DNA from: Candidatus Methylomirabilia bacterium
GTDB lineage: Bacteria; Methylomirabilota; Methylomirabilia; Rokubacteriales; CSP1-6
DNA: 64,000 bases
Assembly: GCA_041490825.1 (NCBI GenBank)
Contig: JBGPTW010000011.1
Location: 2,903-66,902 of the forward strand
Direction of reading: 5' to 3'
In this document: positions 41,772-61,550 of the stretch, piece after piece
Layout of the letters: the number at the start of each line of letters is the position of its first letter
Position numbering within the stretch: position 1 is the stretch's first letter
Notes under the pieces: generated by a model
Told to the model about the DNA's origin: nothing
What the model saw: the letters and a program-made list of their open reading frames with translations, nothing else
Databases searched by the model: none
Translations under genes and position numbers: made by a program

Positions 41772-44700
41772 ATGACGTGCCAGCAGTGCCGGTTCGAGAA
41801 TCCCGCCGGGATGCGCTTTTGCGGGCAGTGCGGCGCCCCGCTCGCGCTCCGTTGCCCGCAGTGCGGAGGAGAGGTCCCGCCTCAGTTCAAATTCTGCGGG
41901 CAGTGTGGCGCGAGTCTCGCGCCCGCGCCGGCGCCAGCCGCGCCGGCGCCAGCCGCGCCGGCGCCAGCCGCAACGGCGGCGACCGTCCCGACCGTGTCAC
42001 CGGCGTCACGCCCGGCCGTCACGGCGGTCGCTCCGTCGCCCGGCATCGCCAGCTATACGCCGAAGCACCTGGCCGACAAGATTCTCAAATCGCGATCGGC
42101 GCTCGAAGGGGAACGGCGGCAGGTGACCGTGCTCTTCGGCGACGTCGCCGGCTTCACCACGCTCGCCGAGAAGCTCGATCCCGAAGAGGTCCACCGGATC
42201 ATCAACCATTGCTTCGAGCTGATCACCGCCGAGGTGCATCGCTTCGAGGGCACGATCAATCAGTACACGGGCGACGGGATCATGGCGCTGTTCGGAGCGC
42301 CGATCGCCCACGAGGACAGCCCGCGGCGCGCCGTCCACGCCGCGCTGGGAATCCAGCGCGCGCTGCGCGACTACGCCAAGGAGCTCGAGGCGGAGCGCGG
42401 GCTGACAGTGCAGATGCGCATCGGACTCAACACCGGGCCCGTGGTCGTCGGCAGGATCGGCGACGACTTGCGCATGGACTACACCGCGGTCGGTGACACC
42501 ACGAACCTCGCGGCCCGGATGCAGCAGATCGCGCGGCCGGGCAGCGTGCTGGTGAGCGACGCGACGCACCGGGTGATCGGCGGGTTCTTCGAGACGCTCG
42601 ATCTCGGCGAAGTCCCGATCAAGGGGCACACGCCCGTGCGCGCCTGGGAAGTGTTGCGGGCGCGCGGCATGCGCTCGCGCCTCGACATCGCCGCCGAGCG
42701 TGGACTTACGCCGCTCATCGGTCGCGACCGTGAAGTCTCGACGCTGCTCGACCGTTTCCGCGACGCGAAGGCCGGCCGCGGCCAGGTCGTGTTTCTCGCC
42801 GGCGAGGCCGGGATCGGCAAGTCGCGGCTGCTGCTGGAGTTCCGTCGCCGCCTGGCGGAGGCCGGTGAAAGCGTCACGTGGCTCGAAGGCCAGTGCGTGT
42901 CGTTCGGCCAGTCCATCCCCTTCCTGCCCGTCGTCGATCAGCTGCGCAGGAACTTTGCGATCGAGGAGCTCGACGGCGAGCCCGAGATCATCGCGAAGAT
43001 CGAGCACGGGATGCGGCGCATGGGGCAGCTCGAGCCGCACATTCCGTACGTGCGGTTTCTTCTGTCGGTGGACCCGGGCGACCCGGCCATCGCGGCGATG
43101 GATCCGCTCGCGCGCCGGCGCAAGGTGTTCGATGCGGTCCGCGCGCTGGCCGTAAGAGGCGCTACTCTCAAGCCCGTCGTCTTCGTGTTCGAGGATCTGC
43201 ACTGGGTGGACACGAGCAGCGAGGAGTATCTCGGTGCGCTGATGGACTCCGTCGCGGGGGCGGCGATCGTGCTGGTGATGACGTATCGCGTCGGTTACGC
43301 GCCCCCGTTCGGTGGCCGCAGCTTCCACACGACGCTGACCCTGCAGAACCTCACCGCGGAGGAGACGCTCGCGATGGCGGGGCGGATCCTCGGGACGGAC
43401 CAGTTCCCCGAGCAGGTCAAGGCTGCGCTGATGGACAAGGCCGAGGGCGTCCCGCTGTTCGTCGAGGAAGTGACCAAGACGCTTCTCGATCTCGGCGTGC
43501 TCCGGCGAGAGGGCGCGGGGCTGGCCGTCGCGAAGGGACTCAGCGAGGTGAGCGTGCCCGACACGATGCAGGGCATCATCATGGCGCGGCTCGATCGCCT
43601 CGGCGACGCCGGCAAGCGCACCGTGCAGCTCGCGTCGGTGATCGGCCGGCGATTCCTCGTGCGCCTGCTCGACCGCATCGGCGGCATGCGCGAGCAGCTC
43701 CACGGCCTGCTGGCCGAGCTGAAGGCGCTGGAGATCATCTACGAGCAGGGGCTCCTGCCCGAGCCCGCGTACATCTTCAAGCACGCCGTCATTCAAGACG
43801 TCGCGTACAACAGCCTCCTGAAGGAGCGACGGCGTGAGCTGCATCGCGCCGTCGGTGACGCGATCGAGGAGCTGTACGCCGACCGGCTCTCCGAGCACCA
43901 CGAGGAGCTGGCCCACCACTACGTCAACGGCGAGCAGTGGGCCAAGGCCTTCGACTACCTCGTGAAATCGGGCGACCGCGCCAAGGACGCCTACGCCAAC
44001 CAGCTGGCGCTCGACTTCTACGCCCGCGCCCTCGACGTCGCGTCGCGCACCTCGCCCGCGCTGACGCCCTGGCAAGTGATGGACGTCCATCAGCGGCGCG
44101 GGCGCGTCTGGCTGTTGCTCGCAAAGTACCAGGAGGCGATCGCCGAGTCCCAGCGGATGCTCGAGGTCGCCCGCGCCGCCGGCGATCGGCACGGTGAGGG
44201 CGAAGCGCTGGTGGACCTGGCGCTCGAGCATTACATGACGTTCGCGTCCGAGAACATGCCGCTCACGAAGCGCCTGGCGGAGGAAGCGCTCGCGATCGCC
44301 GAGCAGACCGGCGACCATCCCGTGCTGGCGAAGGCGCGCACCTATCTGGCCTTCCTCGATCAGGTCGAGGGAAATCTCGTCAGCGCGGACCGATTCCTGG
44401 AGGAATCGCTCAGGATCAGCGAGGCGGAGGGGCTGAAGGAATCGATCGCGCAGAACGTGATGTGGCTGAGCGCGCACGCCGAGTGGCGTGGAGACTTTCC
44501 GAGGGCGATCCAGCTCGCGCAGAAAGCCTCGGCGGCGGCGGCGGAAATCCACGACGGCTTCTTCGAGCTCATGGCGATCGCCTTCGGCTGCCTGGCGGAG
44601 GGAGGTGCCGGACATTACGCCGAGGCGCTCGAGCTGATCAACGACGGCTTGACGAAGGCCCGTGACCGGAATGCCGCGTTCTTCCAGGGCCGGCTCGGCA

Positions 44701-45380
44701 ACAGCCTCGGGTGGGTGTACCAGGAGCTCGGGGATTTCCGGCGGGCGCACGAGCACGACCGCGAGAGCGTCGACCTCGGCCAGCGGATCAAGAACGCGAA
44801 CGTCGAGGTGAGCGCAACGATCAATCTGGGTCTGGATTATTTGAACCTTGGCGAGCCGCGCAAAGCCCTGGCGTTGCTCGAAGCGACCCAGACCCGCGTC
44901 GACAAGCTGGCGTTCGGGGCCCATCGCTGGCGCTGGTCCATCCACACGGCCGTCTATCTCGCCGAAGTGCTCCGAGCGCTCGACGAGCCGGAGCGGGCTC
45001 TCGTGCAGGTGGAGCCGGCGCTGCTCGAGGCTCGTCGGACGGGGTCGATGAAGTACGTGGGAATGTGCCACGCGCTTCGCGGCGAGCTGCAGATGACGGG
45101 ACGGCAGTGGAGCGACGCCGAGGGCGGCTTGCGCGAAGCGCTCGAGATCGCTCAGCGCATCGGCTATCCGAAGCTCCTCTGGCAAGCCGCCGACGGTCTG
45201 GCGCGCGCGCTCGCCGCCCAGGGACGGATGCAGGACGCGTTCGAGGCTTCTCGAGTGGCCGTCAGCGCGATCGAGGCCACCGCGGCACGCGCGCCCGAGC
45301 CGGCGCTCCGCGACTCCTTCATGAACTGGCCGCGCGTGCAGGCCGCGCTCGAGACCGCCGAGCGGCTGCGCCGGGCCTGA
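41772..45380 (+). CDS. double zinc ribbon + class III adenylate/guanylate cyclase + AAA ATPase + TPR protein
   Basis: CxxC pairs; ERRQVTVLFGDVAGFT, YTGDGIMALFGAP, TAVGDTTNLAARM; GEAGIGKS; FEDLHW; TPR-like tail. Confidence 0.93.
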   Translation: MTCQQCRFENPAGMRFCGQCGAPLALRCPQCGGEVPPQFKFCGQCGASLAPAPAPAAPAPAAPAPAATAATVPTVSPASRPAVTAVAPSPGIASYTPKHLADKILKSRSALEGERRQVTVLFGDVAGFTTLAEKLDPEEVHRIINHCFELITAEVHRFEGTINQYTGDGIMALFGAPIAHEDSPRRAVHAALGIQRALRDYAKELEAERGLTVQMRIGLNTGPVVVGRIGDDLRMDYTAVGDTTNLAARMQQIARPGSVLVSDATHRVIGGFFETLDLGEVPIKGHTPVRAWEVLRARGMRSRLDIAAERGLTPLIGRDREVSTLLDRFRDAKAGRGQVVFLAGEAGIGKSRLLLEFRRRLAEAGESVTWLEGQCVSFGQSIPFLPVVDQLRRNFAIEELDGEPEIIAKIEHGMRRMGQLEPHIPYVRFLLSVDPGDPAIAAMDPLARRRKVFDAVRALAVRGATLKPVVFVFEDLHWVDTSSEEYLGALMDSVAGAAIVLVMTYRVGYAPPFGGRSFHTTLTLQNLTAEETLAMAGRILGTDQFPEQVKAALMDKAEGVPLFVEEVTKTLLDLGVLRREGAGLAVAKGLSEVSVPDTMQGIIMARLDRLGDAGKRTVQLASVIGRRFLVRLLDRIGGMREQLHGLLAELKALEIIYEQGLLPEPAYIFKHAVIQDVAYNSLLKERRRELHRAVGDAIEELYADRLSEHHEELAHHYVNGEQWAKAFDYLVKSGDRAKDAYANQLALDFYARALDVASRTSPALTPWQVMDVHQRRGRVWLLLAKYQEAIAESQRMLEVARAAGDRHGEGEALVDLALEHYMTFASENMPLTKRLAEEALAIAEQTGDHPVLAKARTYLAFLDQVEGNLVSADRFLEESLRISEAEGLKESIAQNVMWLSAHAEWRGDFPRAIQLAQKASAAAAEIHDGFFELMAIAFGCLAEGGAGHYAEALELINDGLTKARDRNAAFFQGRLGNSLGWVYQELGDFRRAHEHDRESVDLGQRIKNANVEVSATINLGLDYLNLGEPRKALALLEATQTRVDKLAFGAHRWRWSIHTAVYLAEVLRALDEPERALVQVEPALLEARRTGSMKYVGMCHALRGELQMTGRQWSDAEGGLREALEIAQRIGYPKLLWQAADGLARALAAQGRMQDAFEASRVAVSAIEATAARAPEPALRDSFMNWPRVQAALETAERLRRA
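41925..41969 (+). repeat. 15-bp in-frame tandem repeat (3 copies) in the linker
   Basis: GCGCCGGCGCCAGCC repeated three times, encoding APAPA. Confidence 0.85.
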
Positions 45381-48668: not shown

Positions 48669-49196
48669 ATGAGGTTGCCACTCTCGCGACTCGTGCTCGT
48701 CCTCGCGGCATGCGCCTTCGCCTTCACCGGCCAGCGTGCCGTGGCGCAAGACTCCGACGTCTTCATCTTGAAGGAGAAGACGCCGGCACCCGCGTTCTCG
48801 CTCCCCGACCTCTCGGGCCAGACCGTCAAGTCCACGGCATTCGCCGGGAAGGTCGCGGTGCTGAGCTTCGGCGCGACCTGGTGCCCCACCTGCACCAGCG
48901 AGCTCAAGAGCCTCGAGAATCTCCAGGCGAAGTTTCCGAAAGATCTCGTGGTCTACTTCGTGGCGCTGGACGGTCGCGGCGACAAGGACGTCAAGCCGTA
49001 CATGGAAAAGAACGGGCACAGGATCCCGACGCTGATCGACCCGAAGATGGCGGTGGCGCGCGAGCACGGGATCCGCTGGATCCCGGTCACCGTGGTGCTC
49101 GACCGTACCGGCGTGATCGTCGGCCGGGCGATCGGCCCGCGTGAATGGGACGGCAAAGAAGCGCTCGACTTCATCCAGCCGCTGATCAAGCGATGA
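48669..49196 (+). CDS. secreted TlpA-like thiol:disulfide oxidoreductase
   Basis: Signal peptide; APAFSLPDL; SFGATWCPTCTSE; IPVTVVLDRTG. Confidence 0.88.
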   Translation: MRLPLSRLVLVLAACAFAFTGQRAVAQDSDVFILKEKTPAPAFSLPDLSGQTVKSTAFAGKVAVLSFGATWCPTCTSELKSLENLQAKFPKDLVVYFVALDGRGDKDVKPYMEKNGHRIPTLIDPKMAVAREHGIRWIPVTVVLDRTGVIVGRAIGPREWDGKEALDFIQPLIKR

Positions 49197-49224
49197 GGAT
49201 TCGATCCGTCACAGGAGGATGCGC

Positions 49225-49779
49225 ATGAGACCTATGCGGTTCGCGATGACCCTGCTCGTGGTGAGCATCATGTTCGCGCTGGCGCTTGCCTCGGCGCTCC
49301 CGGCCGCGGCGCTCGAGGTCGGTGACAAGGCGCCCGACTTCAAGCTGCCGGCGACGACGAAGCCGGAGCTGACGCTGTCCGAATTCGCCGGAAAGAAGAA
49401 CGTCGTGCTCTTCGGCTTCATCGGAGCGTTTACCCCGACGTGAACGCGCGAGGTCGCGGCTTTCCAGCTTGATCTCCCCAAGTTCGAAAGCCGTAACGCC
49501 CAGGTCGTGGGCATCAGCTCGGATTTCCAGCCCGCCAGCGCCGCGTGGAGCGAGAAGATGGGACTCACGTTCCCGCTCGTGAGTGACATGGCGCGCACCA
49601 CGCTCGACGCGTACGGGTTTCTCGACACCGACCCGAAGAGCCGCCTCTACCGCTACGCGAAACGTGCGTACGTCATCGTCGACAAGACGGGCGTCGTTCG
49701 CTACAAAAAGATCCTGGCGACTCCGCGTGATCTCGTGACGGATGACGAGCTTCTCGCGGAACTCGACAAGCTGAAGTAG
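49225..49779 (+). CDS. secreted peroxiredoxin (AhpC/TSA, BCP-like), predicted selenoprotein (in-frame TGA at 49441-49443)
   Basis: VGDKAPDFKL...GAFTPT-TGA-TREVAAFQ...VVGISSD...FPLVSD...RAYVIVDKTG in one frame; TGA at the peroxidatic Cys position. Confidence 0.85.
49457..49493 (+). promoter_or_regulatory. bacterial SECIS-like hairpin of the peroxiredoxin
   Basis: CGGCTTTC-C-AGCTTG-ATCTCCC-CAAGTT-C-GAAAGCCG; stem starts 13 nt after TGA. Confidence 0.6.
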
Positions 49780-52135: not shown

Positions 52136-52360
52136 GGGGCCACGAAATGGCCCCTCAGACTCCCCCACGCTCGGGACGCCCCGGGACACCCGTGGCGCCC
52201 CTCGACCCCCCACGCTCGGGGCGTCGCGGGACACCCGCGACGCCCCTCGACCTTTCCCCACGGTCGGGACGCCCCGGGACACCCGCGACGCCCCTCGACA
52301 CTCCCCCACGCTCGGGGCGCCCCGGGACACCCGCGACGCCCCTCGACCCTCCCCCACGGT
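52133..52360 (+). repeat. REP-like element, copy 8: one head plus four tandem second hairpins
   Basis: Units end at 52205, 52250, 52298 and 52346 (periods 45, 48, 48); unit 2 has a perfect 13-bp stem. Confidence 0.93.
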
Positions 52361-52971: not shown

Positions 52972-53196
52972 ATGGCACGGATCAATCTCGAAATAGACGA
53001 CGACCTGAAGCGCCGGGCAAAAGTGAAAGCTGCGCAGGAGCAGCGGCCCCTCACGCAGGTGATCGAAGAGCTCCTCACCCACTGGGTGGAGGCCGGGGAT
53101 ACGGCCGCCAAGCGACGACGATTGCGGCTCGGAGTGCACAAGCTCGGCACGATCGGGACGCTGTCGCGCCGCGAGCTCTATGAAGATCTTCGTTGA
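52972..53196 (+). CDS. vapB: ribbon-helix-helix antitoxin
   Basis: RINLEIDDDLKRRAKVKAAQE; overlaps a PIN gene. Confidence 0.75.
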   Translation: MARINLEIDDDLKRRAKVKAAQEQRPLTQVIEELLTHWVEAGDTAAKRRRLRLGVHKLGTIGTLSRRELYEDLR

Positions 53197-53665
53197 TACC
53201 AATCTCTTCGTATATGCCGTCGACGCTCTGAGTCCCTTCCATCACGACGCGGGATCGTTCTTCGAATCGGTGGCGGAGCGCAACCTCGAACCGCACTACT
53301 CGAACCAGGTGCTCGGTGAGTTCTTCTCGGCCGTCACCAAGCGGGCTGCCCGTCCGCTGAGCCCCACGGTCGCCGCGCGGGAAGCGCTGCGCATGCTCCA
53401 GGCGACGCAGTTGGTGAGACTGCCGATCGACGATATCGCGATGAAGCTCACACTGGCGCTGGCCGGAAAGCATGGGCTGCGGGGCGTCGAGATTTTCGAC
53501 GCCCAGATCGTGGGGACCATGCTGAGCCACGGCGTCGAGGTCCTGTATACGGCCAATGTTCGGGACTTCGCTCGCTTCGACGAGATCGACGTCGTCAATC
53601 CCCTGTTGCCGGCCGGCCCGGGAACTCCACGCGTCGCCGAGAAACGCCGCCGGTATCGGCGGTGA
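53180..53665 (+). CDS. vapC: PIN-domain toxin
   Basis: IFVDTNLFVY, QVLGEF, IFDAQIVG, TANVRDF. Confidence 0.9.
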   Translation: MKIFVDTNLFVYAVDALSPFHHDAGSFFESVAERNLEPHYSNQVLGEFFSAVTKRAARPLSPTVAAREALRMLQATQLVRLPIDDIAMKLTLALAGKHGLRGVEIFDAQIVGTMLSHGVEVLYTANVRDFARFDEIDVVNPLLPAGPGTPRVAEKRRRYRR

Positions 53666-53701: not shown

Positions 53702-54448
53702 ATGCCGCTCCCGGTCGCCGAATTCGCCGCCACGCTCCTGAAGGAGGCCCAGGAGACCCACCCCTGGCTCCATCACCCGCTCTTCCGGATGATCGCCGAC
53801 GGCGAGCTCAGCCGCGGCCAGGTCCAGCAGATCCTCCTCCAGCAAGGCTGCTTCTTCCTCGACACGCTCCGGCACGCCGCCTGGAAGATCATCTCGGTCG
53901 GCGGCTACACGCCGACGTACGAGGACCTCGAGCGCCAGCGCGCGCTCATTCCGCTCGTGGTCGAAGAAGGCGGCCACGACACGATCGGCGGCACGCAGAC
54001 GGCCCACGCCTTCTTGTTCGTCCGGCTGTGCGAGGGAATCGGGCTCACGCGCGATCAGGTGTTCAACACGGAGTACCTGCCGACCACGATCATCGAGAAG
54101 AACGAGCTGTTCCTGTTGCAGCGGTCCTCCACGGTCGAGGCGCTCTGCGGCGGTAACATCGCGACCGAGTCGATCAACGCCGGCGTGTGCCAGCGCCTCG
54201 CCGCGGCAATGGAGAAGCACTACGGCGTGCCCGGGAACGCGCTCGACTTCTACCGTGAGCACATGGAGGTCGAAGGCGACCACAGTGACCGCGCGGTGCA
54301 CATCCTGTCGAAGGTGGCCGTGACCGGCGAAGAGCAGAAGCGCGGGCTCCTGGCCTTGCGGCGAGCGATCACCGCCAGGCGCATCTGCGTCGAGGGAATG
54401 TACGAGGCGTTCGTCAGGGATCGCAAGGAGATCGGCCATGGCCGTTGA
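53702..54448 (+). CDS. heme-oxygenase-like diiron oxidase/oxygenase (TenA/PqqC/CADD superfamily)
   Basis: HPWLHHPLF, VVEEGG...TAHAFLF, ATES, FYREHMEVEGDH give a candidate E-H-E-H-E-H ligand set. Confidence 0.75.
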   Translation: MPLPVAEFAATLLKEAQETHPWLHHPLFRMIADGELSRGQVQQILLQQGCFFLDTLRHAAWKIISVGGYTPTYEDLERQRALIPLVVEEGGHDTIGGTQTAHAFLFVRLCEGIGLTRDQVFNTEYLPTTIIEKNELFLLQRSSTVEALCGGNIATESINAGVCQRLAAAMEKHYGVPGNALDFYREHMEVEGDHSDRAVHILSKVAVTGEEQKRGLLALRRAITARRICVEGMYEAFVRDRKEIGHGR

Positions 54449-55484
54449 CGCCCCACGGATCGATCAAGCGCTCGAGCAGTACATTGCCAGCCTGAGAGCC
54501 GCGGGACTCGATGCCCCGTGGACGCGCCCGGGGCCGCTCATCCAGCCGAAGGCGACCGCGGTGCAGCCGCGTCTGTGGCGCTGGAGCGACGTGGAGGCGC
54601 TGGTCCCGCGCAGCGCCGCGTTCATGAAGCCGGGTCGAGGGGCCGAGCGTCGCGTCGTCCGGCTCGACAATCCCGGCGTGCCGGAGCGAACCACGACGCA
54701 CACGATCTCCGTCGCGGTGCAGTATCTGCTGCCCGGTGAAGTGGCGCCGGCTCACCGCCATACCCCGAATGCGATTCGCTTCATGCTGTCGGGTGAGGGG
54801 GCGTACACCACCGTGGAAGGCGACCGCTGCCTCATGCGCCGCGGCGATCTGGTCTTGACGCCGAGCATGACGTGGCACGATCACGGCAACGCCGGCGGCG
54901 ACCCGGTCATGTGGATCGACGGTCTCGATTCGCCGCTCGTGCGCTACCTCGAAAATCTCCACGGCGAGGGCTATCCGGACGACGCTCAGACACCCGGCCG
55001 CGTCGCCGGGATCTCGGAGCGGAAGTTCGGCGCGCCGGGGCTACGCCCGGCGTGGCGATCGGCGGACACCCCGCCGCATCGAAGTCATCTCATTCACTAT
55101 CGCTGGGAGCCGACGCGCGCGGCGCTCTTCCGGCTGGCCGACGTCGACTCGAGTCCGTTCGACGACGTGATCATGGAATACGTCGATCCGGTGACGGGTC
55201 GCTCGGTGACGCCGGTGCTCGGCTGCTACATCCAGCTGCTCAGGCCCGGCGTGAAGACGCGCGCTCACCGCGAATCGAGCAGCGCCGTGTATCACGTCGT
55301 CGAAGGCAGCGGGGTGACGATGATCGACAACGAGCGTTTCGAATGGGGCACGGGCGACTTCTTCGCGATCCCGCCATCGGCGTCTCACCATCACGAGACG
55401 CGCGGCGGCGAGCCCGCGATTCTCTTCTCGTTCCAGGACGTCCCGTTGCTGAAGGCGCTGGGACTCTATCGAGTGGACGTGTGA
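54438..55484 (+). CDS. gentisate 1,2-dioxygenase-like bicupin
   Basis: EVAPAHRHTPNAIRF, TWHDHGN, WIDGLDSP, TRAHRESSSAVYHV. Confidence 0.85.
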   Translation: MAVDAPRIDQALEQYIASLRAAGLDAPWTRPGPLIQPKATAVQPRLWRWSDVEALVPRSAAFMKPGRGAERRVVRLDNPGVPERTTTHTISVAVQYLLPGEVAPAHRHTPNAIRFMLSGEGAYTTVEGDRCLMRRGDLVLTPSMTWHDHGNAGGDPVMWIDGLDSPLVRYLENLHGEGYPDDAQTPGRVAGISERKFGAPGLRPAWRSADTPPHRSHLIHYRWEPTRAALFRLADVDSSPFDDVIMEYVDPVTGRSVTPVLGCYIQLLRPGVKTRAHRESSSAVYHVVEGSGVTMIDNERFEWGTGDFFAIPPSASHHHETRGGEPAILFSFQDVPLLKALGLYRVDV

Positions 55485-55530
55485 GCCACAGAACGTCGCG
55501 GGGCTGGGGCTCCGCCGTCCGAGGCGAACG

Positions 55531-56484
55531 ATGATCAGTCGCCGAGCGTTCCTCGTCACGGCGACGGCGGCGCTGGCGAGGCCTCGGCGCGCCCGCGCGG
55601 CGGAGCCGGCGTCATTCTCGTTCGCGAGCACCTCCAGCGCGCTCGGCCTCACGACGCAAGTGATCCGCCGACTCGATCTCGAGAAGAAGTACGACCTCAA
55701 GCTCGACGTGAAGCTGCTCGACCCGGCGGCGGCGGAGAAGACCGTGCTGCTCCGTCAGGCCGACACCGGGCTCTTCCCGGTGATCACGGCCGCCGACGTC
55801 AGCCTGAAGGGCCAGGCGCTCGTCCTCTATGCGCCGCTGCTCTACATGCACACGTTCATGGTGGTGTGGCAGGACTCGCCGTACCAGAAGTTCGCCGATC
55901 TCCGGGGCAAGCGGATCGCGCTGCTCGACAAGGTGTCGGGCGCCTATCGCGGCATGGAGGTGCTCGCTGGGCGAGCGGGGATGAGCTTCGAGAAGGATTT
56001 CCAGGTCGTGACGGCTCCGCCGCCGGCGGTCATCGTATTCCTCCAGCGCAAACAGGCCGACGCGATCGTCATCCACGAGCCACTGGTCAGCAAGCTGCTG
56101 GCTGAAGGCAAGTTCCGCGTGGTGATGGGATTGAACGACGAGTGGCGGAAGACGTCCAGGCAGAACTGGCTGTTCCTCTGCGCGGCGGCGTATCGCGACT
56201 GGCTCGACCGGAATCGCGCGGCGGCCAAGCGGCTCTGCGACATGCTGGTCGACGCTGCGCGACAGATCAACAAGAATCCCGATCTGATCGAGGCCGAGGC
56301 CGCGTTCCTCGGATTGAAGACCAAGACGGAGATCGACCTGGCGCGCGAGCGGATGCCGCAGTTCTATCCAGGCGAGTGGAACGAGGCGGTCGTCGCCGGT
56401 GTCTTCGAGAGCGTGCGCGAGGCCGCGCGTCTGGGGCAGATCAAGCAGGCGCCGGGACCGGAGCTCGTCGCGCTGCTGCGCTGA
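55531..56484 (+). CDS. NitT/TauT/SsuA-type ABC substrate-binding protein with Tat-like signal
   Basis: MISRRAFL signal; DLRGKRIAL; ADAIVIHEP. Confidence 0.82.
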   Translation: MISRRAFLVTATAALARPRRARAAEPASFSFASTSSALGLTTQVIRRLDLEKKYDLKLDVKLLDPAAAEKTVLLRQADTGLFPVITAADVSLKGQALVLYAPLLYMHTFMVVWQDSPYQKFADLRGKRIALLDKVSGAYRGMEVLAGRAGMSFEKDFQVVTAPPPAVIVFLQRKQADAIVIHEPLVSKLLAEGKFRVVMGLNDEWRKTSRQNWLFLCAAAYRDWLDRNRAAAKRLCDMLVDAARQINKNPDLIEAEAAFLGLKTKTEIDLARERMPQFYPGEWNEAVVAGVFESVREAARLGQIKQAPGPELVALLR

Positions 56485-56490
56485 GCGCCA

Positions 56491-57264
56491 ATGGCCGAGC
56501 CGCGGCGCCGCCTCGGGAGCCGGGTCGCGTGGGTGCTGTCGGTGGGCGCCATCCTTCTGGTGTGGAGCGGCATCGCGGCGTTCTTTCCGCCGACGCTCCT
56601 GCCGAACCCGGCCATCGTCGGCCGGCGTCTCCTCGAATTGATCCGAGACGGCGAGTTCGGGGTCCACCTCGCGGCCACGCTGCGGCGGGTCGTGGCCGGA
56701 TTCGCGATCGCCTTCGTCGTCAGCGTGGCCGCCGGCATGCTGATGGGCGCGCGGCGGATCGCGGAGAGCGTTTTCGAGTCGTGGGTCCTCGTCGGACTCA
56801 CGGTGCCCGGTCTCTGCTGGGCCGTGCTCGCCGTCATGTGGTTCGGCATCACGGAGATCGCGCCGGTCTTCGCGATCGTCGTCGTGGTGCTGCCGATGCT
56901 GACGCTGAACATCTGGCAGGGCACGAAGAGCGTCGATCGCGACCTGATCGAGATGGCCGCGGTGTTCCACGCCTCCCGCTGGACGATGCTGCGCGACGTC
57001 GTGTTGCCGCAGCTGCTGCCGTTCTGCCTGGCCGGCGCGCGCCTCGGCTTCGCGCTCGGCTGGAAAATCGTGGTGCTGTCCGAGATGTTCGGGCTGTCGA
57101 GCGGTGTCGGATACATGATCAACCGTAGCTTCTCGTCGTATTCCATGGACGACGTGCTCGCCTGGACCGTCGGGTTCACGACGGTCATGTTCGCGTTCGA
57201 GTACGCCGTCATGCTTCCGATCGAGCGCCGGCTGCTGCGCTGGCGCCCGGTGGTGGCGTTTTGA
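56491..57264 (+). CDS. NitT/TauT-type ABC permease
   Basis: TLRRVVAGF, DRDLIEMAAVFHAS, LGWKIVVLSEMFG. Confidence 0.9.
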   Translation: MAEPRRRLGSRVAWVLSVGAILLVWSGIAAFFPPTLLPNPAIVGRRLLELIRDGEFGVHLAATLRRVVAGFAIAFVVSVAAGMLMGARRIAESVFESWVLVGLTVPGLCWAVLAVMWFGITEIAPVFAIVVVVLPMLTLNIWQGTKSVDRDLIEMAAVFHASRWTMLRDVVLPQLLPFCLAGARLGFALGWKIVVLSEMFGLSSGVGYMINRSFSSYSMDDVLAWTVGFTTVMFAFEYAVMLPIERRLLRWRPVVAF

Positions 57265-58025
57265 CCGAGCGCGATGCCGCTGGCCTCGAGGTGGCCGGCG
57301 TCCGCAAGACGTTCCGTCGAAGCGACGGCCGGCAGCTCGTCGTGCTGGATCATCTGAGCTTTCAGGTCGAGCCGCGCGGCTTCGTGTGCCTCGTCGGCCC
57401 GTCGGGTTGTGGCAAGTCCACCATCCTGAATCTGCTGGCAGGACTCCTCGCGCCGGACGTGGGACACGTCCTGATCGGCCATGAACCGCTCAGTCGGGTC
57501 AGCCATCGCATCGGGTACGTGTTTCAGAAGCCCCGGCTCCTCAACTGGCGCACGGTGCGGCAGAACGTCGAGTTCGGGCTGCGGGCCGCCGGCGTCGCGG
57601 GCCGTGAAGCGAGCGATCGCGCGCGAGCCGCGCTGGCGCTCGTCGGGCTCGACACGTTCGCCGACGAGTATCCACTGGTGCTCTCGGGCGGAATGCAGCA
57701 GCGCGTGGCCATTGCGCGCGCGCTCGCGATCGAGCCGCAACTGCTCTTGATGGACGAGCCGTTCAGCCATCTGGACGAGCTGACGGCGCGGGCGCAGCGG
57801 CGCGAGCTGCTCCGCTATCGCGAGAAGATCAACGCGACGGTCGTCTTCGTGACCCACAACGCCCTCGAGGCGACGTACCTCGCCGACTCCGTGTACGTGC
57901 TCGCCCCGTGTCCGGCGCGCATCACGGCGACGTTCGCGGTCGACAGCCCGCGCAGCCGCGAGCTCGAGGATCCGTACGTCGTCGACGTGCAGCGCGCCGT
58001 GCTGAAGGCGCTCGGTGTCGAGTAA
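57261..58025 (+). CDS. NitT/TauT-type ABC ATP-binding protein
   Basis: GPSGCGKST, LSGGMQQRV, MDEPFSHLD. Confidence 0.92.
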   Translation: MTERDAAGLEVAGVRKTFRRSDGRQLVVLDHLSFQVEPRGFVCLVGPSGCGKSTILNLLAGLLAPDVGHVLIGHEPLSRVSHRIGYVFQKPRLLNWRTVRQNVEFGLRAAGVAGREASDRARAALALVGLDTFADEYPLVLSGGMQQRVAIARALAIEPQLLLMDEPFSHLDELTARAQRRELLRYREKINATVVFVTHNALEATYLADSVYVLAPCPARITATFAVDSPRSRELEDPYVVDVQRAVLKALGVE

Positions 58026-58027
58026 GC

Positions 58028-58108
58028 TTCACGAAGGGCTGCCCGGTGTCGCGGTCGGCCCCGCGCGGGATCAAGATCGAGTGGGACGGTGAAGTGGAAG
58101 AGGAGTGA
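58028..58108 (+). pseudogene. possible 3' remnant of an OsmC/Ohr-family gene
   Basis: FTKGCPVSRSAPRGIKIEWDGEVEEE* resembles the OsmC C-terminal CPVS motif. Confidence 0.3.
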
Positions 58109-58175
58109 TCAGATACGCTACGATGCCAGACGTCATGACACGGGAATCGGTGAAACCGGTGAGGGAGAGAGTGAG

Positions 58176-59198
58176 ATGACGCCGAACAGCTACTGGCGAA
58201 TGCCTGGGATCGCGTTTGTCGTTCTGGTGTCGCTGGTCGCCACGGTCTTCGCGGCCGACCCGTGCCCGCATCGAGGAAAGCTGGACGCGCTGTACTGTGA
58301 CGAGAACCGTGATCTCGTCGCCGATCCGCCGAAGGACCCCTCGAAGCTCATCAATCCCGACACGCTGGTGTTCTCGTACGTGCCGGTCGAGGACCCCGCC
58401 GTGTACGAAGGCGTGTGGATCGACTTCCTCGAGCATCTCGGCCACGTCACCGGCAAGAAGACGAAGTACTTCGGACTGCAGAACTACGCGGCCGAGATCG
58501 AGGCCATGCGCTCGGGTCGGCTGCACGTCGCCGGCTTTTCGAGCGGCAGCGTGCCGTTCGCCGTCAACGTCGCAGGCGCCGTGCCGTTCGCGATCATGAG
58601 CAGGGGCGCGGTCAAGTCGGGCTACCACCTGGTCGTGATGGTCCAGGCCAAGAACGACAAGATCAACTCGATCGCCGATCTGAAGGGCAAGCGCGTGGCC
58701 CACGTGTCGCAGACATCTAACTCCGGTCATCAGGCGCCCGTGTACCTCTTCTCCAAGATGGGCGTCGTGCCGGGCAAGGACTACCAGATCGTCTTCTCGG
58801 GCAAGCACGACACGAGCGCGCTCGGCGTCGTCAACGGCGACTACGACGCGGCGGCCGTGGCCGACGAGGTGGTCAGGCGGATGGTGGCGCGCGGCGTGAT
58901 CAAGGCCAGCGACTACAAGATCATCTACACGTCGCCGCTGTTCCCGACGACCGGCTATACCTACGCCCACAATCTCGATCCCAAGCTCGTCGACAAGATC
59001 AAGCAAGCCTTCCTGACCTTCAAGTTCGACGGGACGAGCATGGCGAAGGAATTCGGCGTGAGCAGGTACACGGCCTTCCTGCCGATCAACTACGCGAAGG
59101 ACTGGGAGCCGGTGATCGGCATCCAGGACGCGAACGGCGTCGTCTACAGCAAGGACTCGGAAGACTACAAGAAGCTGCACAAGCCGACGAAGGACTGA
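58176..59198 (+). CDS. phnD: phosphate/phosphite/phosphonate ABC substrate-binding protein
   Basis: [33 protein letters not shown]. Confidence 0.9.
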
Positions 59199-59209
59199 TC
59201 GGCGCCGGC

Positions 59210-59965
59210 TTGCTCGAGGTCAAGGATCTCGCCAAGCGGTATCCGACGGGCGACCACGCCCTCCGCGGCGTCTCGCTCACCATCGACGGCAGCGACGCCG
59301 TCTTCATCATCGGGCCGTCGGGCGCCGGCAAATCCACGCTGCTCCGCTGCATCAATCGGCTCGTCGAGCCCGACGCCGGCTCCGTCCGTCTCGACGGACT
59401 GGAGATCACCACGCTGACCGGATCCGAGCTGCGCGCCGCCCGCCGCAAGATGGCGATGATCTTCCAGGAGTTCAACCTCGTCGAGCGGCTCACGGTGATG
59501 GAGAACGTGCTGTCGGGCCGCCTCGGTTACGTCTCGACGTGGCAGGCGTGGCGGCGCCGATTCCCGCCCGACGACGTCGAGACCGCGTTCCGCACGTTGC
59601 AGCGAGTCGGTCTCGAGGGCTTCGAGAACAAGCGCGCCGATGCATTATCGGGGGGCCAGCGCCAGCGCGTCGGCATCGCGCGCGCGCTCGTCCAGCGCCC
59701 GAAGATTCTCCTGGTGGACGAGCCGACCTCGAGCCTCGACCCGCGGACCTCCGACGCGGTGATGCGGCTCATCGTCGAGCTGGCCGCCGAGGCCGGCATC
59801 CCCGCGCTGGTCAACATCCACGACGTGCCGCTGGCGCGCGCGTTCGCCAAACGCATCGTCGGGTTGCGGAACGGCGTTGTCGTCTACGACGGCACGGCCA
59901 GCGAGCTGACGCCCGCGGCCCTCGAGCGCGTGTACGGGGGCACCTCGCTCGCCGCCGAGTCATGA
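59210..59965 (+). CDS. phnC: phosphonate ABC ATP-binding protein
   Basis: [40 protein letters not shown]. Confidence 0.92.
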
Positions 59966-60756
59966 TGGCGGCGGCGCGCGCCTGGCGACCGCCGTCGATC
60001 TGGCCGCGACCGTGGATCGGCCCGACGCTCTGGATCATCATTGCCGGGTTTCTCGTCTGGAACGTCTTCGAGCTCGAGATCGATCCGGTGCGTGTGGCCC
60101 GTGGCGTCGCGCGCTTCAGCACCGTGCTCGCGCGCGCGTTTCCGCCCGACTTCCACCGCGCCGGGCTCATCACGACGGGCGTGCTCGAGAGCGTCGAGAT
60201 GGCAACGCTGTCCACGCTCCTCGGCGTGCTGCTCGGCATTCCGGTGGCGGTGCTCGGCGCGCGCAACGTCGTCCCGCTGCTCGTGTACCTCGGTGGTCGG
60301 GGCACGATCACGATCGGCCGCACGTTCCACGAGCTGATCGTCGCGATTCTCTTCGTGAAGGCGCTCGGCTTCGGCGTCTTCGCCGGCGTGCTGACGCTCA
60401 CGGTCAACTCCGTCGGATTCTTCTCGAAATTGCTGGCCGAAGAGATCGAGACGATCGACCGCGGACAGATCGAGGCGATCCGCGCGACGGGCGCCTCACG
60501 CGGCCAGGTGCTGATCTACGCCGTGCTGCCGCAGGTGCTGCCGCGCATCGTCGGACTCACCGTCTACCAGTGGGACATCCACCTCCGGCAGTCGACCATC
60601 ATCGGCATCGTCGGCGCCGGCGGCATCGGCGCCACGCTCTACAACGCCTTCGCGCGCTACGACTTCGACTTCGTGCTGGCCATCCTCATCGTCATCGTGG
60701 CGATCGTGCTGGTCGGCGAGGCGCTGAGCGCGCTGGCGCGCGCGGCGGTGCAGTGA
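59962..60756 (+). CDS. phnE: phosphonate ABC permease
   Basis: [31 protein letters not shown]. Confidence 0.9.
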
Positions 60757-61550
60757 GCGAATCCGTGGCTCGCGCCTGGCGCCGCTTCACGCCGGCGCAA
60801 ACGATCGCACGGACGCTCGGCCAGCTCGCCGTGGCGGTCCTCGCCGCCTGGATGATCGCGCGGCTCGGCATCCGCTGGGATTACGTGGCCGACGCGCCGG
60901 CGCAAGTTGGCGATCTCCTCCACCGGATGTTTCCACCGGAGTGGCAGTTCGCGGGCACGCTCGTGCGCCCGCTGATCCAGACCGTCAACATCGCGACGCT
61001 CGGCACCGCGGTGTCGGTCGTGCTGTCCATTCCCGTCGCGGTCCTGGCGGCCCGGAACACGACACCGAACATCGTCACGTACGGTCTCGGCCGGGTGCTG
61101 ATGGTCGTGAGCCGCTCGGTGGACACGCTGATCTGGGCGCTGATCTTCATCATCGTCGTCGGGCCGGGCTCGCTGGCCGGCGTGCTCGCCGTCTCGATGC
61201 GCTCGATCGGGTTCGTCTCCAAGCTCTTCGCCGAGGGCATCGAGGAGGTCAACCGGGGCCAGGTCGAGGCCATCGTCGCGACGGGCGCGAGCCGCTGGAA
61301 AGTCCTCCTCTATGCTGTCGCGCCGCAGGTCCGGCCGGTCTTCGCGGGCGTCTCGATCTATCGTTGGGACATCAACATCCGCGAGTCGACCGTGCTCGGC
61401 ATCGTCGGCGCCGGCGGGATCGGCTTCGTCCTGAACGAGGCGATTCTCGGGCTCGAGTGGAGCCGCGTCGGTCTGGTGCTCGTCGTGATCCTCGCCGTCG
61501 TCGTTGCATCCGAAGCCGTCTCCGCGCTGCTTCGAAAGCGCCTGACCTGA
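60753..61550 (+). CDS. phnE: phosphonate ABC permease (second copy)
   Basis: [39 protein letters not shown]. Confidence 0.9.
   Translation: MSESVARAWRRFTPAQTIARTLGQLAVAVLAAWMIARLGIRWDYVADAPAQVGDLLHRMFPPEWQFAGTLVRPLIQTVNIATLGTAVSVVLSIPVAVLAARNTTPNIVTYGLGRVLMVVSRSVDTLIWALIFIIVVGPGSLAGVLAVSMRSIGFVSKLFAEGIEEVNRGQVEAIVATGASRWKVLLYAVAPQVRPVFAGVSIYRWDINIRESTVLGIVGAGGIGFVLNEAILGLEWSRVGLVLVVILAVVVASEAVSALLRKRLT

Follow-up and report, generated by a model that had tools for sequence, protein, structure and literature searches.

A type of heme-oxygenase-like dimetal protein encoded together with a gentisate-dioxygenase-like bicupin: a candidate cassette for the oxidation of imported aromatic acids

Introduction

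The characterised heme-oxygenase-like dimetal oxidases (HDOs), such as UndA, BesC, SznF, HrmI/BelK, AetD, SktA, FlcD/E, RohS and CADD, all build, to our knowledge, a natural product or a cofactor. The gentisate-type ring-cleaving dioxygenases have as their classical upstream partner a flavin hydroxylase, the 3-hydroxybenzoate or 3-aminobenzoate 6-hydroxylase. In a stretch of DNA of 64,000 nt from a Candidatus Methylomirabilia bacterium (contig JBGPTW010000011.1; hereafter the window), five genes at 53702-58025, all on the + strand, encode an HDO, a bicupin of the gentisate/salicylate dioxygenase family and the components of an ATP-binding cassette (ABC) transporter of the NitT type, the upstream partner of the bicupin being here the HDO instead of a flavin hydroxylase. 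One of the two types of this HDO family, designated type B, forms with the bicupin a portable two-enzyme oxidative cassette, their association being exclusive over 15 loci.

Among the described systems, the p-aminobenzoate (pABA) synthases CADD and NePabS (1RCW, 8VA9, 9PJ4) share with the window HDO the seven-helix heme-oxygenase fold and the same six-ligand dimetal site, and give the best sequence-profile match among the solved structures. However, the window HDO is only about 12-14% identical to them over the structural alignment, its first Glu-to-His loop has 12 residues versus 6 in CADD, the sacrificial Tyr27 and the amine-donor Lys152 of CADD are replaced by F28 and L166, and its gene, rather than belonging to a folate cluster, is part of an operon for uptake and adjoins the gene of a ring-cleaving dioxygenase. 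PqqC is the top fold match (TM-score 0.82), and the HDO relatives are named PqqC by JGI, but PqqC has neither a metal cofactor nor the H-x3-E-x2-H motif, and the score of the window HDO against TIGR02111 is far under the cut-off. In SznF, the enzyme of streptozotocin biosynthesis, a dimetal HDO passes its product to a mononuclear-iron cupin, and both folds are encoded in the window by overlapping genes; SznF differs in being a single, biosynthetic polypeptide acting on N-methyl-arginine, with a monocupin unrelated to the gentisate dioxygenases. The gentisate, salicylate and 5-aminosalicylate (MabB) dioxygenases are bicupins whose N-terminal barrel carries the 3-His Fe(II) site and in which Arg, Gln, His and Asp residues hold the ortho-hydroxybenzoate, as in the window protein, which differs from them by the residues S91, H88 and A93 and by its scores of 270.5 bits against TIGR02272 (gentisate 1,2-dioxygenase; cut-off 442.1) and 274 bits against NF049978 (5-aminosalicylate dioxygenase MabB; cut-off 650).

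Linkage of the HDO and the bicupin

The gene neighbourhoods were pooled from HDO-seeded loci, from bicupin-seeded metagenome loci and from the contigs of the closest relatives, the neighbours being gene-called and clustered and the cluster representatives annotated. A bicupin gene was found downstream of the HDO gene, with 0 to 1 genes between, in 15 of 15 type-B loci, namely in the window and in 14 loci of other metagenome-assembled genomes (MAGs) or metagenomes (L007, L008, L009, L016, L017, L021, L051, L067, L127, L128, L129, L130, L131 and the P0005 contig), with the limit that in L128, L131 and P0005 the contig stops within or just past the downstream gene, the 206-aa fragment of P0005 being a bicupin by presumption only. 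At the loci of the other HDO type, designated type O, there was no bicupin (0 of about 36). An earlier note on this DNA, made from the letters alone, would have given up its proposal if the two enzymes did not co-occur elsewhere; the 14 further loci carry both. The linked pair sits in different MAGs, and the flanks are otherwise wholly unlike in L009, L016, L021, L051 and L129.

The bicupin gene directly follows the HDO gene in 9 of the 15 loci, and in the other six a D-2-hydroxyacid dehydrogenase gene stands between, overlapping both the HDO and the bicupin genes by 4 bp each. In the window, where the five co-directional + open reading frames (ORFs) were recovered with a codon log-odds gene caller with start optimisation trained on the window itself, the bicupin ATG at 54438 lies within the final codons of the HDO gene (11-bp overlap, 54438-54448) and has AAGGAG 8 nt upstream; the HDO start is preceded by a GGAGGAG ribosome-binding site, and the TTG start of the ATPase gene is on the TGA stop of the permease gene (4-bp TTGA overlap, 57261-57264). 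The tight linkage of the five genes with these two overlaps, as given in the earlier note, can thus be read directly in the sequence. Translational coupling is suggested by the gene overlaps, which range from 4 to 11 bp.

The reverse association is looser. The HDO-linked bicupins are confined to two sister subclades (7 and 8), 65-100% identical to the window bicupin, where 12 of the 18 assessable members are linked to an HDO, and only 2 of 8 in the bicupin-seeded sample, which was blind to the HDO; no member of the other bicupin subclades is HDO-linked. The HDO depends, therefore, on the bicupin and not the reverse, as would be expected if a peripheral enzyme funnels a precursor to shared ring cleavage, and the asymmetry fits an upstream position of the HDO as such a funnel. 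Among the longer HDO relatives examined by a Rosetta-stone search for HDO-cupin fusions, only HDO domains were present, and no literature was found on an HDO with a gentisate-type dioxygenase, ring cleavage or catabolism.

The HDO protein and its two types

The AlphaFold model of the HDO, based on a 50-sequence alignment (pLDDT 93.9), is all-helical, with the seven-helix heme-oxygenase-like fold, and matches PqqC best, as well as CADD, UndA, FlcD, HrmI and BesC (TM-scores 0.7-0.82). The protein is matched by the family PF14518 (Haem_oxygenas_2) and, more weakly and partially, by PF03070 (TENA/THI-4/PQQC; 4e-7), while the pABA synthases are on top when the HDO family profile is compared to solved structures (9PJ4, 2e-52; CADD 1RCW, 4e-42). 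In the profile alignment, E89, H102, E156, H187, E191 and H194 correspond to E81, H88, E142, H174, D178 and H181 of CADD, and the six residues are invariant in about 50 of 50 family members examined. Because H92 varies across the family, H102 and not H92 is taken as the ExxH-type partner histidine of E89. By this alignment the site is the three-His, three-carboxylate dimetal set of the HDO superfamily, and the protein is predicted to bind two metals and to activate O2. The CADD/PqqC-like helical fold with E-H-E-H-E-H ligands noticed earlier is borne out by the model matches and the CADD alignment, with H102 as the ligand histidine, and the metal-free TenA thiaminase, which had been named as the case against it, was checked and is opposed by the full CADD-type six-ligand site.

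Several known functions were considered for the HDO and rejected. For TenA thiaminase, PF03070 covers only residues 23-130 at 30 bits, the metal site is complete, and the alignments with the solved TenA structures are limited to the N-terminal half, with E-values from 1e-5 to 1e-10 versus 1e-42 for CADD. For PqqC, the HDO scores 34.1 bits on TIGR02111, the cut-off of which is 240, and has the metal ligands, the H-x3-E-x2-H motif being absent from PqqC. For a CADD-type pABA synthase, the TIGR04305 score is 38.7 bits against a cut-off of 200, in addition to the replacement of the sacrificial tyrosine and the amine-donor lysine given above; the Y27F substitution abolishes the pABA formation by CADD (PMC9522330), and the Nitrosomonas pABA synthase NePabS requires Tyr25 and Lys159 (PMC11965152). 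No pqq (pqqA, B, D, E), thi or fol genes were found in the window flanks examined.

The search of 5.8 billion proteins gave 527 HDO matches, with an identity to the window HDO of 75% or more in the best 120; among 1.84 billion 50%-identity representatives, the HDO makes essentially one full-length cluster with fragments, the next relatives, after a gap, being about 31% identical. In forty genome loci, it was found mainly in MAGs of Rokubacteria/Methylomirabilota, with some loci in Acidobacteria (group 5, Acidoferrum) and Binatia and one in Chloroflexota, and the window sequence was found again in many sediment metagenomes.

The two types of the family are separated by fixed ligand-adjacent differences at the positions 92, 162 and 186: H (or R) 92, V/A162 and E186 in type B, to which the window HDO belongs, and E92, H162 and V186 in 30 of 30 aligned members of type O. 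The type-O proteins are 70-78% identical to the window HDO. In at least six loci the type-O gene is the last of a polar-amino-acid ABC importer operon, with gaps of about 14 bp, and it was also located between the genes of Amidohydro_2 and an LVIVD β-propeller; 5' of the genes of an MR/MLE enzyme or an APC permease; and 3' of those of a D-aminoacylase-like amidohydrolase, a molybdopterin oxidoreductase or an aldehyde:ferredoxin oxidoreductase. The type-O loci in polar-amino-acid ABC or related settings include L013, L015, L022, L024, L027, L045 and others. The type-O HDO, uncharacterised like type B, may act on an imported amino-acid-like compound.

The bicupin and its relatives

By its scores, the bicupin is placed within the wider gentisate/salicylate dioxygenase family and outside both named equivalogs. 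Its structure matches are PDB 2d40 (8e-66) and 2phd (3.5e-53). The Fe ligands H106, H108 and H147 correspond to H119, H121 and H160 of the salicylate 1,2-dioxygenase (SDO; 2PHD), and R67, R71, Q95, R114, H149 and D161, kept across the related subclades, to R79, R83, Q108, R127, H162 and D174 of SDO, which are the substrate contacts according to the published SDO work. On the other hand, W104 of SDO, which is Y or F in two solved gentisate dioxygenases, is replaced by S91, and G106 by A93; H88 is invariant. Since the SDO-type Fe ligands and substrate contacts are kept and S91, A93 and H88 differ, the substrate is likely an ortho-hydroxy-carboxylate, and probably not gentisate itself.

The sister bicupin subclades adjoin the decarboxylase-type genes UbiX, UbiD and Amidohydro_2, a setting of aromatic-acid decarboxylases. 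The relatives not linked to an HDO were found with UbiX, a porin and a NitT transporter of the same kind; with UbiD; with an ABC transporter and Amidohydro_2; with an NAD-binding dehydrogenase and an α/β-hydrolase; and with a radical-SAM protein and an enzyme of the fumarase/adenylosuccinate-lyase family. The conserved unit of L049-L053, where the bicupin belongs to a sister subclade, comprises the UbiX flavin prenyltransferase, a porin-like protein of 394 aa (weak ExtI match), the bicupin and the NitT-type binding protein, permease and ATPase, with no UbiD gene seen within the stretch examined. The 394-aa upstream gene was considered as one displacing the HDO in the bicupin-NitT loci without HDO, but it gave no clue, its product being porin-like and encoded next to UbiX.

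Importers and accessory oxidoreductases

The periplasmic binding protein at 55531-56484 has at its N-terminus the twin-arginine (Tat) signal SRRAFL, and the window ABC transporter is therefore regarded as an importer. It is assigned to the NitT/TauT family, having in one unit a binding protein of NMT1/SsuA type, an SsuC/TauC-like permease and an ATPase; the family matches of the binding protein (NMT1/SsuA/Phosphonate-bd type) are all weak, with 59 bits versus 163 for TIGR01728, and its nearest solved structures, TauA and SsuA, are matched at E~3e-3 only. The importer next to the HDO-bicupin pair is a NitT/TauT ABC system in the window, L007 and L009, but includes a TctC binding protein of the TTT class in L051, belongs to the major facilitator superfamily in L016 and L130, and is a PhnD-like system in L127; in L129 the pair is accompanied by a divergent TRAP system and a CoA ligase.

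An accessory oxidoreductase usually goes with the pair: in some loci it is the D-2-hydroxyacid dehydrogenase, in others (L009, L016, L051, L129) an F420-type luciferase-like protein of 257 aa. The two never occur together, and both are missing from the window and from L127. In L131, the closest relative, with an HDO 91% identical, the gene order is that of uracil-DNA glycosylase (UDG), HDO, dehydrogenase and bicupin. The dehydrogenase gene occupies 1742-2731 in L131 and 3662-4639 in L008. The window HDO carries an extra C-terminal tail, RKEIGHGR, overlapping the bicupin start, and, because L131 keeps the dehydrogenase gene between, this longer tail and the 11-bp overlap may be the scar of its deletion.

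Proposed pathway and alternative explanations

Taken together, the importer, the HDO and the bicupin may provide the uptake, O2-dependent conversion and ring cleavage of an aromatic or heteroaromatic carboxylate, a reading for which confidence and doubt are about evenly balanced. In this pathway, the Tat-exported binding protein with its ABC partners would import a substituted aromatic or heteroaromatic carboxylate. With O2 and an Fe/Fe or Mn/Fe site, the HDO would hydroxylate, oxidatively decarboxylate or demethylate this compound to give an ortho-hydroxy-carboxylate, and the bicupin would chelate this product at its 3-His Fe(II) site and cleave the ring with a second O2. The substrate class, the HDO reaction and the action of the HDO before ring cleavage are what we infer here. 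More tentatively, and with the doubts prevailing, the type-B HDOs as a whole might serve for an O2-dependent tailoring of an imported aromatic acid for which HDOs are not known (such as arene hydroxylation, oxidative decarboxylation or O-demethylation), with the product handed to a dedicated gentisate-dioxygenase-like enzyme, in a two-gene cassette moving between the uptake systems of Rokubacteria and other soil and sediment phyla.

The uptake-and-catabolism route had been proposed in the earlier note, and it retains in its favour the Tat signal, the varied importers, the bicupins near UbiX, UbiD and Amidohydro_2, and the linkage asymmetry, but not the conservation of the five-gene unit. The HDO-bicupin-NitT operon as a unit stood only in part: the HDO-bicupin pair recurs, whereas the NitT transporter is interchangeable, and the nearest relatives have the dehydrogenase between the two genes, which the window does not.

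Several points weigh against the proposed pathway. We know of no characterised HDO that hydroxylates an arene or acts in catabolism. A 2026 review treats HDOs in natural-product biosynthesis only. The bicupin is below both equivalog cut-offs and has S91 versus W, Y or F in the characterised enzymes; the window flanks examined contain neither a maleylpyruvate isomerase or hydrolase nor any other enzyme that would process a ring-fission product; the transporter class is not conserved with the pair (four or five importer classes); none of the RNA runs searched was found to contain the locus; and the type-O HDOs are mainly beside amino-acid/peptide transporters, which could indicate an amino-acid-like substrate for the family.

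The alternative that survives best, possible though rather unlikely, keeps the pair coupled but assigns to the HDO a non-aromatic or amino-acid-like part of the pathway, or a step after ring cleavage. For instance, the HDO might oxidatively decarboxylate or N-oxygenate an amino or 2-oxo acid, and the 2-hydroxyacid dehydrogenase might act on that side chain as well, or else on the product of ring fission. The known HDO reactions on amino and fatty acids (N-oxygenation, C-C cleavage, oxidative decarboxylation) are in line with it, as are the type-O relatives that close polar-amino-acid ABC operons or adjoin APC permeases, D-aminoacylase-like amidohydrolases and MR/MLE enzymes, and the dehydrogenase gene that separates the two enzyme genes in 6 of 15 loci, that of the closest relative among them; however, the HDO gene comes first, the HDO is the partner that depends on the other in the asymmetric linkage, and type B differs from type O near the active site, so that the type-O context is a weak guide. 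It is improbable that there is no common pathway at all and that the HDO gene is a neighbour by inherited synteny of an ordinary gentisate-type uptake and cleavage unit made of the bicupin and the importer: the UDG-HDO-bicupin synteny is indeed common to the close relatives L127, L130 and L131, and many bicupins of the same subclades function without an HDO, but the linkage survives where the flanks are otherwise different and is found in 15 of 15 type-B versus none of about 36 type-O loci, and the two genes overlap. Less probable still is an auxiliary role of the HDO toward the bicupin (repair or loading of the Fe(II) site, or removal of a reactive by-product), which would agree with its strict one-way dependence on the bicupin and with the protective roles ascribed to some HDO-like proteins, e.g., to DtpC of A. 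baumannii, but which is opposed by the full catalytic-type dimetal site kept with subfamily-specific residues around it and by the type-O relatives occurring without any cupin. Finally, cofactor salvage or biosynthesis by a TenA thiaminase with a ThiY-like importer, by PqqC or by a CADD-type pABA synthase, to which the PF03070 match, the NMT1/THI5-like binding protein, the JGI names and the best fold match to PqqC might point, is largely refuted and hardly credible any more in view of the TIGR02111 and TIGR04305 scores below the cut-offs, the metal ligands missing from PqqC/TenA but all present in the HDO, F28 and L166 at the CADD sacrificial positions, and the absence of pqq, thi and fol genes in the flanks examined.

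If the proposed catabolic role is true, it would be the first degradative use of this enzyme class and would extend the superfamily in its chemistry as well as in its biological role. The HDO and the bicupin are two small soluble proteins that can be co-expressed, the binding protein may be used to fish for the ligand, and the existence of only two HDO subtypes, three residues beside the metal site apart, gives a handle on function. The carriers, which are Rokubacteria/Methylomirabilota, Acidobacteria and Binatia not yet in culture, come from soil, groundwater and sediment, and little is known of their aromatic-carbon metabolism.

Gene map and flanking genes of the window

Table 1. Genes of the candidate cassette, with the matches and residues on which each assignment is based.
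Gene product	Coordinates	Strand	Evidence
Type-B HDO, 248 aa	53702..54448	+	PF14518 1.4e-14; model pLDDT 93.9; CADD ligand mapping; markers H92/V162/E186
Gentisate/salicylate 1,2-dioxygenase-family bicupin, 348 aa	54438..55484	+	two Cupin_2; TIGR02272 1.7e-80; NF049978 2.2e-81
NitT/TauT-type periplasmic binding protein, 317 aa	55531..56484	+	weak PF12974, PF13379, PF09084, TIGR01728
ABC permease, 257 aa, SsuC/TauC/SaoP-like	56491..57264	+	PF00528 (BPD_transp_1) 5e-20; NF040733 1.8e-35
ABC ATPase, 254 aa, TTG start	57261..58025	+	PF00005 (ABC_tran) 8.6e-34

The cassette is followed by PhnDCEE-like genes (58089-61550, +), the binding protein of which matches GpxB (9LF9) at 1.6e-87 and keeps 4 of 4 glycerol-phosphate contacts (Tyr138, His199, Arg223, Thr247). 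GpxB was described in 2025 from marine bacteria, its contact residues and the import of glycerol phosphate being given in PMC12718374, while the window comes from a probably Rokubacteria-like organism of sediment. These genes most likely encode a GpxBACD-type importer of glycerol-1-phosphate/glycerol-3-phosphate, probably unrelated to the cassette. A phosphonate link, considered from the top Pfam match of the cassette binding protein (Phosphonate-bd) and the PhnDCEE-like genes downstream, was rejected, as the downstream binding protein is GpxB-like. A GpxB-type transporter is also located directly 3' of the bicupin gene in L127.

The UDG gene and a VapBC pair precede the HDO gene, and the other flanking genes are housekeeping. 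The overlapping genes of the VapB-like protein (74 aa) and the VapC PIN-domain protein (161 aa) are located at 52972-53665 (+), between the UDG and HDO genes; since the UDG gene directly precedes the HDO gene in L127, L130 and L131, the pair looks inserted. Between the acyl-CoA dehydrogenase and UDG genes there is a 48-bp tandem repeat (52160-52358; 4.2 copies, 86% matches), which, if the ORF from 52147 is real, would be a proline-rich stretch (PRSGRPGTPATPLD) at the UDG N-terminus. At 49219-49779 (+), two short ORFs of 74 and 90 aa lie side by side, and the translation of the second looks, by eye, like the C-terminus of a peroxiredoxin/redoxin. They could represent a gene split by a frameshift or a fault of the assembly; just 5' of them, 48675-49196 encodes another Redoxin/AhpC-TSA protein. 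Further upstream, 41772-45380 (+) encodes a protein of 1202 aa with a double zinc ribbon, an adenylate/guanylate cyclase domain, an AAA_16 ATPase and TPR repeats, that is, with a STAND-like signalling architecture.

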